Positions 5,055 through 60,563 of a stretch of DNA of 64,000 nt are shown piece after piece. The notes beneath the pieces were generated by a model, which was not told the origin of the DNA, made no database searches, and was given only the letters and a program-made list of their open reading frames with translations. Source of the DNA: Candidatus Aenigmatarchaeota archaeon (GTDB lineage: Archaea; Aenigmatarchaeota; Aenigmatarchaeia; GW2011-AR5); contig JACPJW010000001.1 in assembly GCA_016187335.1 (NCBI GenBank), positions 404,170 to 468,169 of the forward strand, in the 5' to 3' direction. Made by a program: the position numbers and the translations under genes. Every line of letters starts with the position of its first letter. Position 1 is the first letter of the stretch.

Positions 5055-6335
5055 ATGGCTAAAGACGGTAAATCCAAAAAAGAACATGTAAGAGTCATGG
5101 TAAGAAATTTTGAAGTAGGTAGTGACGAATTATTCATAATAGCAGGCCCTTGTTCTGTTGAAAGCCGAGACCATATCATAGAAATGGCTTATTTAGTTAG
5201 AGGTGCTGGTGCTGATGCCCTACGTGGCGGTGCTTTCAAACCACGCACAGAAGCTGGTAAATTTGATGGCTTGAAAGAAAATGGTTTAAGGTATCTGGTT
5301 GAAGCTAGAGAAAAGACAGGATTGCCGATAGTTACTGAGATAATGGCAATAGAAGATATCCCATTATTTCAACAATACGGTGTTGATGTATATCAAGTAG
5401 GAACAAGAAATGCCCAGAACTTCCCCCTATTACATGCACTCGGAGATCTTGGTGTAACTGTTTTGCTGAAGAGAGGAATGGGAAACAAAGTTGAGGAATG
5501 GCTAGGTGCTGCAAGTCATGTAGTTTCAAGAAGGAATAAAAATCTGATTTTGTGTGAACGAGGAGTGTCTACATTTGATTCTAAGTTATTCAGAAACATG
5601 GCGGATATTGCAGGAATGGCTTACGCAGAAATGGAAGATAAATATCCGGTTTTATTTGACCCAAGCCACGCAACCGGTATTAGAAAACTTGTTCGTCCAA
5701 TGTCTCGCGCTGCTGTTACAGCAGGCGCTGACGGGCTTTTAATAGAAGTTCATGATGATCCGAATTACGCAAAAACAGATGGTCAACAGAGCATATACCC
5801 ACGTGAGCTTGAATTTTTAATAAAGGAAGCTAGGCGACTTAGAGCAGAATATATTGATTCGACGGCAGGACATGAAAAATGGATGGAAAAGCTGCAACCT
5901 AACATGACAATATACTTTCAGAAGGAATATCTAGATGATGTATGCGCTTTATTGGGATCTGATGCAGAGAGATTGAGGGTCAGGTCATACGGAGAAGACA
6001 CAGGAATTCTTCAGGCAAGGGTAAAGACAGGTCATGTAGGAAAATTAAAACAAAAAGGCGGTTATGCTATCGGAAGACTTTCGATGTGGAGTTCAGGTCC
6101 TGGAGAACCAGCTACAATACCGATGGCGAGTGTTGAGGCAGGGGGTCAACCAAAAACAATTCTAACCCTTTACGACAAAGAATTATTAGAAGACGCAGGT
6201 AAAAAGACAATAGACCAACGATACACACATCTTAGAAGATTACAAGTGAGACAATCGCACCCGGGAGATTTAGAACTTATAGCAAAAGCCTTTACGACTT
6301 ATACGGATAGACCTCTTATTCTATATCAACCATAG
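5055..6335 (+). CDS. 3-deoxy-7-phosphoheptulonate (DAHP) synthase, KDO8P-synthase-like class, with ~165 aa C-terminal extension
   Basis: 426 aa; FIIAGPCSVES and DPSHATG motifs typical of class I-beta DAHP synthase; codon third positions visibly more A/T-rich than neighbours. Confidence 0.75.
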   Translation: MAKDGKSKKEHVRVMVRNFEVGSDELFIIAGPCSVESRDHIIEMAYLVRGAGADALRGGAFKPRTEAGKFDGLKENGLRYLVEAREKTGLPIVTEIMAIEDIPLFQQYGVDVYQVGTRNAQNFPLLHALGDLGVTVLLKRGMGNKVEEWLGAASHVVSRRNKNLILCERGVSTFDSKLFRNMADIAGMAYAEMEDKYPVLFDPSHATGIRKLVRPMSRAAVTAGADGLLIEVHDDPNYAKTDGQQSIYPRELEFLIKEARRLRAEYIDSTAGHEKWMEKLQPNMTIYFQKEYLDDVCALLGSDAERLRVRSYGEDTGILQARVKTGHVGKLKQKGGYAIGRLSMWSSGPGEPATIPMASVEAGGQPKTILTLYDKELLEDAGKKTIDQRYTHLRRLQVRQSHPGDLELIAKAFTTYTDRPLILYQP

Positions 6336-6944
6336 TCAAGGCTTATGTCTTGTAATAGCGTAGTAGGTCACGTCTCCTTCGTTATCCACAATCGCCCATA
6401 ACATCCTTGCTCGTATGTTGTGGGCAAGCCTGACAGAGCGCGAAAGTTCCTGGAACGACATGGTGAAATCCTCCGGCACCGAGAAAACTATCCATTTCGT
6501 GTGCTCTTTGGCGGATTTCGGCCCTTTCTTCAGCTGCACGCCCCTTTCATACACGCGGAAGTCGCAGCCGAACTTGAATCCTGTCCTGACAAGCAGCCCG
6601 CGCTCCCTGAGGTCTTCGTAAACGCGGTAGCGCTCCGTGAACCTTTTGTCCAGAGCAGAAGAATGCCTGAACAGCTCGTCGAATGTTATTTGTTTCTTGC
6701 TGCTGTCAAAGACCCTTATCCTGCCGCGCTTCAGCAGCAGGCACGCTTCTACCAGAGCCAGTTCAAGCCTGTCAGGAAGAATTTTGCCGTAATAGCCGGG
6801 CTCGTAAACGCTTTCAAAGTTTTTCCATGCAACTGCTTTGTTCTCTTCCAGCGTTGTATCCACAACTTCTTTGAAAGGCTCCGGCTCCACGTATTCCGGT
6901 CTATCCTCTTCAGAATCATGCTTTTTCTTGGACATTTTGAACAC
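6336..6944 (-). CDS. endA: tRNA-splicing endonuclease subunit
   Basis: 202 aa; GFKFGCDFRVYERG and EHTKW segments match the EndA catalytic-domain fold (Tyr/His/Lys region). Confidence 0.7.
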   Translation of the reverse strand: MFKMSKKKHDSEEDRPEYVEPEPFKEVVDTTLEENKAVAWKNFESVYEPGYYGKILPDRLELALVEACLLLKRGRIRVFDSSKKQITFDELFRHSSALDKRFTERYRVYEDLRERGLLVRTGFKFGCDFRVYERGVQLKKGPKSAKEHTKWIVFSVPEDFTMSFQELSRSVRLAHNIRARMLWAIVDNEGDVTYYAITRHKP

Positions 6945-7643: not shown

Positions 7644-7743
7644 TTCGCCGGGGCGATATTAATAGGTTGCCTTTAGAAAGCAGCAAAGAAAGCGTAATGC
7701 GGGTGTGATTTAACCCTTTTAGAAAAAGCGTCACGGAAAAAGA

Positions 7744-7980
7744 TGGGAAGGGAGGGATTTCCAGAACTTTTCATCGTTTTCCTCGAAGAACATCAGTTCT
7801 TCGGTATCTCGGAGAACTATCGTTCTCCGCAGATGATCGAACTTTTCTGAAAAGTTCGTTTGGACCCTCGACATTCCCGGCGTAGCACCAATCAAGTGCT
7901 ATGCTCCACGGTCTTCAGCCGTGTGCTCTCCCAGGCTTTGCCAACCGAAAAAATCATTCTCGGTTTTGAGCTACCTTCCC
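7744..7980 (-). tRNA. tRNA-Phe (anticodon GAA) with three putative introns (D-loop, variable loop, T-loop)
   Basis: Minus-strand acceptor GGGAAGG/CCTTCCC with discriminator A; D-stem GCTC/GAGC with AGCCUGGGA loop; anticodon arm CACGG-CUGAAGA-CCGTG; exons sum to about 73 nt; T-loop junction uncertain. Confidence 0.5.
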
Positions 7981-8402: not shown

Positions 8403-8521
8403 CGCCCCGGGACGGACTCGAACCGTCGACCTTCTGCAATTAGTCAAGAAATCCAAAAACTTGCTTGACTGTTAACAGCCAGACGCTTTAGGCGTCTATC
8501 TACCTGCTGAGCTACCAGGGC
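8403..8521 (-). tRNA. tRNA, anticodon unresolved, with D-arm intron and a second 27-nt hairpin intron
   Basis: Minus-strand 5' GCCCTGG TAGCTCAGCAGGTAG and 3' GACGG-TTCGAGT-CCGTC-CCGGGGC-G; removing a 19-nt hairpin restores D-stem GAGC; two parses give 73-nt exons but neither yields a canonical anticodon loop. Confidence 0.5.
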
Positions 8522-28827: not shown

Positions 28828-28940
28828 GGGCTTGTAGTCTAGAGACCCTTTAGAAAAAGCGTCTACGAAAAGGGTTGGAAAATGGTTATGACGTCGCCTT
28901 CACACGGCGAAGGTCGGCGGTTCGAATCCGCCCGAGCCCA
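28828..28940 (+). tRNA. tRNA-Val (anticodon CAC) with 40-nt D-loop intron
   Basis: GGGCTTG-TA-GTCT-AG [intron 28843-28882] TGGTTA-TGAC-G-TCGCC-TTCACAC-GGCGA-AGGTC-GGCGG-TTCGAAT-CCGCC-CGAGCCC-A; exons sum to 73 nt. Confidence 0.8.
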
Positions 28941-41195: not shown

Positions 41196-41330
41196 GGCCG
41201 CCATGGTGTAGAAAGCCCTTTTTGACGCTTCGCTTATCAAAAAGCGCTTGCGGAAATAATTAGGGTTTGCAAATTGGTAGCATCGGAGCCTGTGGAGCTC
41301 CTTGGCTGGGTTCGAATCCCAGTGGCGGCC
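41196..41330 (+). tRNA. tRNA-His (anticodon GUG) with encoded G-1 and 63-nt D-loop intron
   Basis: G-1 plus GCCGCCA, D-stem GTGT/GCAT, D-loop AG [intron 41212-41274] TGGTA, anticodon arm GGAGC-CTGTGGA-GCTCC, T-arm CTGGG-TTCGAAT-CCCAG, acceptor TGGCGGC, discriminator C. Confidence 0.8.
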
Positions 41331-41360
41331 CTAAATTATTGTTATGATTAAGAAAATAAT

Positions 41361-51228: not shown

Positions 51229-51492
51229 GCGCCCGTAGCTCAGCTTGGCAAACTTTGCTACTCCAAAGTTTGATCAAAAGAGGTCTGTGACGAAGTTTGA
51301 GCAAATAGAGCACTTCTCTCCTAGAGGTGAATTGAGCGCAACGGAAGACTGAAGTTTCTGAAGAAACTTCAGCCGGTTTTGTGCGATGATAATTTCCTGA
51401 AGTGAGGAAGGGGCCGCGCGTTCGAATGCACCCTTTCTTGGAAAGAAAGCGTGCACGGAAAGAAAAGGGTGCCGAATATCGCGCCGGGCGCG
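51229..51492 (+). tRNA. tRNA-Arg (anticodon CCU) with three introns
   Basis: Exons GCGCCCG-TA-GCTC-AGCTTGG / TAGAGC-A-CTTCT-CTCCTA / A-GGAAG-GGGCC-GCGCG-TTCGAAT / CGCGC-CGGGCGC-G; introns about 51249-51305, 51324-51404, 51428-51479; exons sum to 74 nt. Confidence 0.8.
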
Positions 51493-56404: not shown

Positions 56405-56509
56405 GCCGGCGTCGCATAATCTGGTGGTGCACTGATTGCATGCGAAGCAAGTGTATGTCTCGAAAACCAGCGGGCTCTGCCCATGCAGGTTCAAATCCTG
56501 CCGCCGGCG
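56405..56509 (+). tRNA. tRNA, anticodon unresolved, probably intron-containing
   Basis: Acceptor GCCGGCG/CGCCGGC with discriminator G; T-arm GCAGG-TTCAAAT-CCTGC; internal 73 nt could not be folded into a unique cloverleaf. Confidence 0.5.
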
Positions 56510-57022: not shown

Positions 57023-57282
57023 GCCGGGATACCGAAATCAGGTCTCTCAAGATAAGAGTGAAGAAATTCACGATGATTGCCTTTCATTGGTAAACGGGCC
57101 AGTGCAGTTCCGCTTCAAAGAAGCGGTGCGGCCAACCTTGAGAGCTGGTGCGCCTTCGGCGCGTGGGGGTTCAAAGCACCCTTTCTTTTTGCAAAAGAAA
57201 GCGTGCGCGGAAAGAAAAGCAACTTTTCAGAAAAGTTGCATCAAAAATAAAGGAAAGGGCTGTGAAATTCCCTCTCCCGGCG
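57023..57282 (+). tRNA. Class II tRNA, tentatively tRNA-Ser (UGA), with three putative introns
   Basis: Acceptor GCCGGGA/TCCCGGC, discriminator G; anticodon arm CCAGT [intron] CTTGAGA-GCTGG; variable arm GCGCC-TTC-GGCGC; T-arm GGGGG-TTCAAA [~93-nt intron] T-CCCTC; exons sum to about 87 nt. Confidence 0.5.
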
Positions 57283-59484: not shown

Positions 59485-59665
59485 GCGATGGTAGTCTAGG
59501 AACCCTTTTTCTCGTTGCGCTCGAAAAAGCGTTCACGGAAAATGGGTTGGAAGATGGTAGGATACAACCTTGCCAACGGCCCTTTTCAAAAAGCGCCGGC
59601 GGAAAATGCAAACAGGTTGAGAGGCGAAAGCCCGACAAACCCGGGTTCAAATCCCGGCCGTCGCA
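59485..59665 (+). tRNA. tRNA-Gly (anticodon GCC) with D-loop, anticodon-loop and variable-region introns
   Basis: GCGATGG-TA-GTCT-AG [intron] TGGTA-GGAT-A-CAACC-TTGCCA [intron] A-GGTTG ... CCGGG-TTCAAAT-CCCGG-CCGTCGC-A; exons sum to about 72 nt. Confidence 0.6.
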
Positions 59666-60291: not shown

Positions 60292-60563
60292 GCGGCCGTC
60301 GCCAAGAGGCCCTTTTTAGAAAAAAGCGTCTACGGAAAAACTAAAAAGCGTCTGGAAATCTGGTCAAAGGCGCGGGTTTCACTTGAGTGTTGATGCGCAA
60401 GCAGGTGAAAGCGTAACTCAAGGCAGCTGACGAGGCTGACGCACTTCGTGCGTCATGCTGTTTGATATCCCGTCGGTTAGTCCGTTCGGCGGTTCGAATG
60501 CACCCTTTCTTAGAAAGAAAGCGTGCACGGAAAGAAATGGTGCCGAAAATCCGCCCGGCCGCA
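60292..60563 (+). tRNA. Class II tRNA, probably tRNA-Leu, with three introns (anticodon unresolved)
   Basis: GCGGCCG-TC-GCC-AAG [53-nt intron] CTGGTCAAA-GGC matches the tRNA-Leu D-arm; T-arm GGCGG-TTCGAAT [51-nt intron] CCGCC-CGGCCGC-A; a third ~83-nt intron in the anticodon region gives 85-nt exons. Confidence 0.55.

Follow-up and report, generated by a model that had tools for sequence, protein, structure and literature searches.

A putative α4-type tRNA splicing endonuclease with an L3 loop and no canonical catalytic lysine, encoded beside non-canonical tRNA introns in Aenigmatarchaeota

Results

Identity and fold of the window EndA

The DNA examined here, called the window, is a stretch of 64,000 nucleotides (nt) from a Candidatus Aenigmatarchaeota archaeon (contig JACPJW010000001.1), and the element under study is its gene for the tRNA splicing endonuclease EndA (tRNA-intron lyase). 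Judged by its sequence, this EndA is probably a self-sufficient enzyme of the homotetrameric (α4) type that carries the loop L3. The catalytic residues Y129 and H145, the cation-π residue R169 and the acidic loop L10 all stand on one chain and are invariant across 29 to 119 homologues; the combination of a single chain of the class of about 180 amino acids (aa) with Y129, H145 and a conserved acidic L10 is the α4 signature. In a heterotetramer, (αβ)2, the acidic L10 of a structural subunit docks into a catalytic subunit whose own L10 is degenerate (PMC2761253), and no such degeneration was found in the window EndA. With Tyr, His and acidic L10 on one chain and no β gene upstream, the heteromeric architecture implied by the original prediction is disfavoured. 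The features of the gene are as follows.

6336..6935, minus strand: EndA (tRNA-intron lyase) coding sequence, 199 aa plus stop (Pfam, NCBIfam and PDB matches, homologue starts)
6669..6860, minus strand: N-terminal domain PF02778, residues 26-89 in the 199-aa numbering, 29-92 in the 202-aa reading frame (Pfam)
6363..6641, minus strand: C-terminal catalytic domain PF01974, residues 99-191 (Pfam)
6549..6551, minus strand: catalytic Tyr129, equivalent to Methanocaldococcus jannaschii (MJ) Y115, Nanoarchaeum equitans (NEQ) Y86 and ARMAN-2 Y236 (alignment; invariant in 119/119 family members)
6504..6542, minus strand: L3 loop, G132-E144, GVQLKKGPKSAKE, a basic insertion between the catalytic Tyr and His (alignment to 3iey_A)
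6501..6503, minus strand: catalytic His145, equivalent to MJ H125, NEQ H102 and ARMAN-2 H251 (alignment; invariant in 119/119 family members)
6408..6410, minus strand: Ala176 at the canonical catalytic Lys position (MJ K156, NEQ K133, ARMAN-2 K282; Archaeoglobus fulgidus (AFU) K287), motif HNIRA[R/K]MLW (gapless alignments)
6372..6389, minus strand: acidic L10 loop, V183-D188, VDNEGD, predicted to dock dimer on dimer for the tetramer (aligned to MJ VDADGD)

The open reading frame (ORF) at 6336..6944 on the minus strand has 202 codons and opens at GTG. A protein that is 100% identical to the window protein (P0001, 199 aa, annotated as tRNA-intron lyase) comes from a Candidatus Aenigmarchaeota metagenome-assembled genome (MAG) on a contig of 918,042 bp. 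Since this protein and the homologues open at the ATG at 6935 (MSKKK...) and the upstream in-frame GTG at 6944 is unused by homologues, the gene was placed at 6336..6935; the ATG is probably the true start and the GTG probably not a start.

The window ORF matched PF02778 (tRNA_int_endo_N; E 1.2e-12, 47.6 bits, cut-off 21), PF01974 (tRNA_int_endo; E 1.5e-27, 95.9 bits, cut-off 27) and TIGR00324 endA (109 bits, cut-off 59.6). The closest solved structures by sequence were M. jannaschii EndA, 1a79 (E 6e-33), followed by N. equitans NEQ205, 3iey_A (E 4e-31). These matches bear out the prediction of a splicing endonuclease gene. A Sen15 Pfam match of the window protein (E 0.013, below cut-off) was dismissed, as it overlaps the EndA C-terminal domain. 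An AlphaFold2 monomer model built from a diverse 52-sequence alignment had a mean predicted local distance difference test (pLDDT) score of 90.8, and the top Foldseek matches to it were all EndA/TSEN chains, the best being 1a79_A (template modelling (TM) score 0.89, root mean square deviation 2.3 Å). The domain architecture, which the original prediction had left to be modelled, is therefore one N domain plus one catalytic C domain with an EndA-like fold. When all six frames of the 64-kb window were searched with the family profile (hmmsearch), the ORF described here was the only EndA-like one, in agreement with the earlier claim of a single EndA-like gene in the window, and no β-type gene is adjacent to the window EndA.

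A basic L3 loop between Tyr and His

The spacing between the catalytic Tyr and His is 15 residues in the window EndA, compared with 7 in 68/134 canonical units and 9 in MJ. The added residues align to 3iey_A (GVIPKKGKRSERE), where their equivalent is the N. equitans-specific loop 90-98 (K93, K94, K96, R97), defined in PMC3488258 and treated also as L3 in PMC5829648. Specifically, GVQLKKGPKSAKEH of the window EndA aligns with GVIPKKGKRSEREH of NEQ205, so that both have a Tyr-His insertion with consecutive basic residues. L3 is invariant across the window EndA family.

The original prediction had tied broad cleavage specificity to non-homotetrameric architectures. This rule has been superseded. 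In Yoshinari 2009 (PMC2724299) subunit architecture was found not to be what chiefly determines EndA specificity, and both that study and Kaneta 2018 (PMC5829648) trace specificity to lineage-specific loops. Kaneta 2018 also reported a narrow-specificity (αβ)2 enzyme, gave the specificity loops the new names L1 to L3, and described L3-bearing α4-type EndAs in several DPANN lineages, linked to more tRNA gene disruption.

The missing catalytic lysine

The catalytic Lys of the triad is absent. Ala occupies its position in the window EndA and in 119/119 other family members. Around Ala176 the alignments with the three solved enzymes contain no gaps and are anchored on either side (VRLAH..., ...AIVD), and the motifs compared are HSVRKK in MJ, HSTRKK in NEQ and HSVRKT in ARMAN-2 versus HNIRARMLW in the window. 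The trans-acting cation-π Arg is present and invariant as R169 in VRLAH (equivalent to AFU R280 and ARMAN-2 R275), seven residues ahead of the Lys position. Since the A. fulgidus and ARMAN-2 enzymes no longer cleave once their catalytic Lys is changed to Ala (PMC12397907), another residue must compensate in an active enzyme with Ala176.

Among representatives at 50% identity (n=146 catalytic units), Lys is present in 134 and Ala, Ser, Thr or Val in 12. The Lys-less group takes in Nanohaloarchaea (P0127) and other Aenigmarchaeota. Loss of Lys tracks long Tyr-His spacing, at least 14 in 19/22 Lys-less units versus about 5/134 Lys-bearing units, and the association of the two traits is probably due to one shared origin in evolution, not to independent events. 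The basic residues of 13 non-redundant Lys-less units were then compared with those of 120 Lys-bearing units.

R131: basic in 100% of Lys-less units, 38% of Lys-bearing units
R175: basic in 100% of Lys-less units, 83% of Lys-bearing units
K147 (His+2): basic in 85% of Lys-less units, 46% of Lys-bearing units
K140 (in L3): basic in 77% of Lys-less units, 15% of Lys-bearing units

The residue at His+1 is Thr in Lys-less units and Ala or Ser otherwise. In the model, K147 lies just before strand 148-154 and A176 just before strand 177-183, with helix 161-173 joining both strands. If the two strands are adjacent, as the order of secondary-structure elements suggests, relocation of the cation to the neighbouring strand would be plausible. 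No report of a Lys-less EndA was found in the literature searched, relative to which the clade-wide replacement of this 'indispensable' residue is new.

tRNA genes and introns in the window

ARAGORN with default settings found zero tRNAs in the window, and Rfam found three interrupted tRNAs, all with large insertions. Scans for T-arms and repeated motifs revealed at least eight tRNA genes, all interrupted. In its intron mode ARAGORN called a Tyr with a 477-nt intron and a Glu with a 104-nt intron, both of which were rejected as spurious.

Introns were resolved by the bulge-helix-bulge (BHB) rule, under which a central H helix of 4 bp is flanked by 3-nt bulges 3′ of H on each strand and the cut falls after the second bulged base. 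Eleven introns were resolved in this way, and ten of them lie at non-canonical positions, so the earlier premise of many non-canonical introns holds in the window. In-silico splicing turned five genes into clean cloverleaves recognized by ARAGORN: Asn GUU, Val CAC, His GUG with G-1, Ser CGA and Gly GCC.

8403..8521, minus strand: tRNA-Asn(GUU), a predicted substrate; 12-nt intron at 22/23 (8488-8499, bulge-helix-loop) and 34-nt intron at 39/40 (8437-8470)
28828..28940, plus strand: tRNA-Val(CAC); 38-nt D-loop intron at 16/17 (28844-28881); Rfam called the 3′ part only
41196..41331, plus strand: tRNA-His(GUG) with G-1; 61-nt D-loop intron at 16/17 (41213-41273); not among the Rfam calls at the gathering threshold
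51229..51492, plus strand: 264-nt tRNA gene; strict hBHBh′ T-loop intron at 59/60 (51427-51478)
56405..56509, plus strand: tRNA-Ser(CGA); 22-nt anticodon-stem intron at 29/30 (56435-56456)
57023..57282, plus strand: 260-nt tRNA gene; 93-nt T-loop intron at 59/60 (57176-57268)
59485..59665, plus strand: tRNA-Gly(GCC); introns at 16/17 (59501-59553), canonical 37/38 (59576-59613) and 45/46 (59622-59638)
60292..60563, plus strand: 272-nt tRNA gene; T-loop intron at 59/60 (60499-60549) and a D-loop intron bearing the conserved core described below

In all 11 introns the 4-bp H helix is perfect and the bulges are 3 nt long. The strict hBHBh′ motif is confined to the three T-loop introns at 59/60, and for these the unconstrained minimum free energy (MFE) fold reproduces the 3-4-3 BHB. 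The other 8/11 introns are without h or h′ when at least three contiguous pairs are required, and take the form HBh′, hBH or bulge-helix-loop. Each of the three longest genes spans 260-272 nt between acceptor halves that pair perfectly, from which about 180 nt of intervening sequence per gene can be reckoned. A combinatorial BHB search gave dozens of equally acceptable splicing solutions for these genes, so that the T-loop introns alone were counted as resolved; the genes must hold further introns, possibly nested or non-BHB.

Many of the introns share a conserved core, AAAGCG-N4-CG(G/A)AAA, usually placed after CCCTTT(T/C). It occurs in 10 copies in the window versus 0.59 expected, and is far less frequent in the 80 related loci, where 1.19 Mb hold 14 copies.

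28855, 41240, 51445, 57197, 59525, 59589, 60322 and 60517, plus strand: core copies inside tRNA introns (8)

The core comes in a D-loop type and a T-loop type (GCACCCTTTCTT.GAAAGAAAGCGTGCRCGGAAAGAAA), and in MFE folds it occupies an apical loop, about 20 nt long and unpaired, atop the h′ helix. The introns that bear it look like a paralogous, possibly mobile, intron family. Motifs that would support reading the core as a C/D-box guide or a kink-turn were looked for and not found, and a promoter or terminator reading of CCCTTTT followed by AAAAAGCG was considered only. A free-standing copy of the core, CCCTTTTAGAAAAAGCGTCACGGAAAAAGATGGG, stands at 7724 on the plus strand, with a second degenerate copy just upstream. 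The region concerned, 7690-7760, falls between genes, upstream of the 187-aa gene standing before EndA. No tRNA could be recognised around it and Rfam gave no match, and shuffled sequence folds at least as well (z +0.88). This copy may have decayed from an intron or belong to an RNA gene that escapes recognition; alternatively, it may show that the core is not intron-specific.

In 80 related Aenigmatarchaeota loci, representing 80 species, only 37/92 T-arm candidates lie inside tRNAs that ARAGORN recognises without introns, which indicates that tRNA disruption is a trait of the phylum and is extreme in the window genome. Standard tRNA finders probably miss most tRNA genes across the phylum. 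A literature search for tRNA introns of Aenigmatarchaeota found nothing.

EndA in related Aenigmatarchaeota

A broad EndA hidden Markov model was used to scan the 80 loci (L006-L085, 1.2 Mb). About 76 of the 80 have one EndA ORF within ±10 kb, with L10 reading VDNE[GSNAD]D, and the acidic L10 was counted as kept in about 77 single-gene loci; within the window clade D184, N185, E186 and D188 of L10 are invariant. In one locus (L050) the gene is split by an apparent frameshift. Tandem β-α genes were present in 3/80 loci (L070, L079 and L084) and in a separately found lineage (L001-L003).

L001, 331-1396: tandem pair, β directly upstream of α
L070, 9451-10537: tandem pair, β directly upstream of α
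L079, 9396-10534: tandem pair, β directly upstream of α
L084, 5882-6968: tandem pair, β directly upstream of α

The tandem β proteins have lost His and have a very acidic L10 (VDNDxD). The tandem α proteins keep L3, Tyr and His, and their L10 is degenerate in 3/4 lineages (VSKDEK, VSESKE, VDKNNN). His-less EndA-like proteins were seen among distant relatives (P0142, P0161 and P0231). The gene for P0231, of the separately found lineage, lies directly upstream of a second EndA gene, whose α product has L3, Tyr and His but an L10 reading VVSKDEKVKYF, and P0121 is a fused two-unit chain of 360 aa with the same division of labour between His and L10. In every β-bearing relative found, the β gene is immediately upstream of α. 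Taken together, these signatures indicate that the phylum holds both states and that the window clade has the undivided α4 signature; the single-gene majority, the tandem pairs and the fusion would thus form a within-phylum snapshot of subfunctionalisation and fusion. One locus with an Aenigmatarchaeota-type EndA (L082) is labelled Planctomycetota, and this contig is probably mis-binned.

Neighbouring genes and further features

The gene upstream of EndA encodes an unrelated protein of 187 aa. On the other side, a DAHP-synthase/NeuB-family gene (426 aa, 5055-6335, plus strand) is convergent with EndA, the stop codons abutting (6335/6336) with zero spacer, and the same layout was seen in further assemblies of the organism (L004, L005). 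Other genes near EndA encode a CBS-domain protein, a class II aminoacyl-tRNA synthetase, and the α and β subunits of phenylalanyl-tRNA synthetase (PheRS).

Residues 1-24 of EndA (6864-6935, minus strand) form a conserved N-terminal extension made up of M-x-KKK, an acidic run and EYVEPE. It is modelled with a pLDDT of about 65, and M1, K3, K4, Y15, E19 and K22 are nearly invariant. The stretch that codes for LAHNIRARMLWA, at 6394-6425, forms an imperfect inverted repeat (GCCCACAACAT...ATGTTATGGGC), and an antisense ORF at 6367-6618 (plus strand) consequently gives the near-identical peptide IAHNILARMLWA. The hmmsearch match of this ORF (E 0.005) was rejected as spurious on that account.

Discussion

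Several alternatives to a self-sufficient α4 enzyme were weighed. The model closest to that implied by the original prediction, in which the window protein is the catalytic α of an (αβ)2 heterotetramer whose β is encoded elsewhere in the genome, we regard as unlikely. Heterotetramers are known in DPANN (N. equitans, PMC2761253) and were found here inside Aenigmatarchaeota, and NEQ205, the second-best solved match, is an α subunit that shares L3. Against this, the site directly upstream of α, where β stands in the β-bearing relatives, is taken in the window by the unrelated 187-aa gene, and L10 is intact and invariant in the window clade. Two dedicated searches with β-type queries gave at least 79 His-less proteins among the matches listed, several of them named Aenigmatarchaeota, and the matches listed included no β-type protein from the 918,042-bp EndA-bearing contig.

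A number of points weigh against the α4 proposal and have to be set beside those just given. The β searches, which are indirect evidence, depend on shared 5-residue words and returned the best 120 matches per listing, and the direct profile search for a second subunit covered 64 kb of a genome of ~918 kb, 93% of which lies outside the window. One tandem lineage (L070) keeps an acidic L10 on its α, so that retention of L10 alone is no proof of independence from β. The missing catalytic Lys raises the possibility that the single chain is a poor catalyst, and the scoring of h and h′ counted contiguous pairs only, which may overstate the relaxation of the motifs. Finally, the substitutions K241A and K244A in the L3-equivalent loop of ARMAN-2 were without effect (PMC3488258), which leaves a role of L3 in specificity unproven anywhere; the link between L3 and cleavage of relaxed BHB motifs is correlative only in the literature (PMC5829648).

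The absence of Lys also invites the explanation that the chain is impaired and mainly structural or RNA-positioning, with another nuclease or a divergent catalytic paralogue doing the cutting. The residue found is the very Ala whose introduction abolishes activity in A. fulgidus and ARMAN-2 (PMC12397907). Even so, this explanation is very improbable: strict purifying selection acts on Tyr, His, the cation-π Arg and the pocket around them, and the organism clearly needs splicing. Moreover, a Lys-less site must be catalytically competent, because in the tandem pairs the only His-bearing subunit is likewise Lys-less (HTIRAQ, HNIRAN) and its partner is without His. An ordinary α4 enzyme of narrow specificity, acting on introns that only seem relaxed because refolding of the pre-tRNAs, or a fixed order of processing, presents strict hBHBh′ motifs, would accord with the perfect H helices and 3-nt bulges of all 11 introns, with the three strict T-loop motifs, and with the independence of BHB recognition from tRNA position. 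Yet the 12-nt intron of tRNA-Asn, a bulge-helix-loop, cannot form h′, 8/11 introns have no flanking helix of at least 3 contiguous bp, and the invariant L3 beside the active site tracks tRNA disruption across DPANN (PMC5829648). We therefore hold a narrow specificity to be quite unlikely.

The data show what the protein is, with its fold and motifs, the introns, and how the lineages compare; the oligomeric state, broad specificity and lysine compensation that we infer for the self-sufficient α4 enzyme may be combined as follows. One N+C subunit would serve as the tRNA/RNA splicing endonuclease of the organism, four identical copies assembling into an α4 homotetramer through pairing of C-terminal β-strands and the acidic L10. 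This homotetramer would excise BHB and relaxed-BHB introns at 16/17, 22/23, 29/30, 37/38, 39/40, 45/46 and 59/60 without a separate structural subunit. Cleavage would be RNase-A-like, with Tyr129 as base and His145 as acid, and the positive charge, canonically that of a transition-state Lys, would come from another residue, the candidates being R175, K147, R131 and K140 of L3. The basic L3 (KKGPKSAK), lying between Tyr and His and beside the active site, would be the likely source of tolerance for relaxed motifs. As a more tentative proposal, to which we would give rather less than even chances, Aenigmatarchaeota, Nanohaloarchaeota and some unnamed relatives may form a natural 'with-no-lysine' clade in which the cation has moved into or beside L3 (K147 in HTK, K140 in GPK, R131, R175), L3 being part of a rebuilt, roomier active site that lets a plain homotetramer cut relaxed BHB motifs.

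In textbook accounts the cutting of non-canonical introns is tied to heteromeric or fused enzymes and the Tyr-His-Lys triad is indispensable; the window gene is an apparent phylum-wide counter-example to both. The protein is small and should be easily expressed, and so offers a system for studying L3 specificity, compensation for the lost Lys, and subfunctionalisation from α4 to αβ. In addition, missed tRNA genes in such genomes distort estimates of MAG completeness and decoding capacity.

Comparison with known systems

The best match by both sequence and fold, M. jannaschii EndA (α4, 1a79), is likewise one N+C unit of similar size with Tyr, His, cation-π Arg and acidic L10 (VDADGD vs VDNEGD) on a single chain. 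The window protein differs from it in having L3 (spacing 15 vs 9), Ala in place of K156, and about 24 additional conserved residues at the N terminus that are Lys-rich and acidic. For the MJ enzyme a requirement for strict hBHBh′ has been reported, whereas the predicted natural substrates of the window enzyme are mostly non-canonical or relaxed. NEQ205 (α of (αβ)2, 3iey_A), also from DPANN, resembles the window protein near motif-for-motif in L3 (KKGKRSEREH vs KKGPKSAKEH), but it keeps K133, its alignment to the window protein ends before L10 and β9, and it requires the structural subunit NEQ261 for the tetramer.

The tandem β-α pairs of L001, L070, L079 and L084 and the fused chain P0121 share L3, the HTK motif and NIR[A/S/T] at the Lys site with the window clade. 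They consist of two genes, or two units per chain, in a classic subfunctionalisation that is absent in the window clade. The ε2 EndA of ARMAN-2 (4fz2, 9w2k) is another DPANN enzyme of broad specificity with an insert at the same Tyr-His site (240-247); unlike the window EndA, it is a dimer of a three-unit chain, its specificity resides in the ASL loop (Y160, K161), and K282 is present and essential.

The category to which the window gene belongs is that of the L3-bearing α4 EndAs of DPANN and Hadesarchaea (PMC5829648), which likewise combine a single gene and L3 with heavily disrupted tRNA genes. None of these is known to have been characterised biochemically; the survey in that paper did not analyse Aenigmatarchaeota, and its main text does not mention replacement of Lys. 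The broad category, an L3-bearing α4 EndA in an intron-rich DPANN genome, is thus already described. What is new relative to the literature found is its extension to Aenigmatarchaeota and the coexistence there of the α4 signature and tandem β-α genes with a clean L10/His signature of subfunctionalisation.

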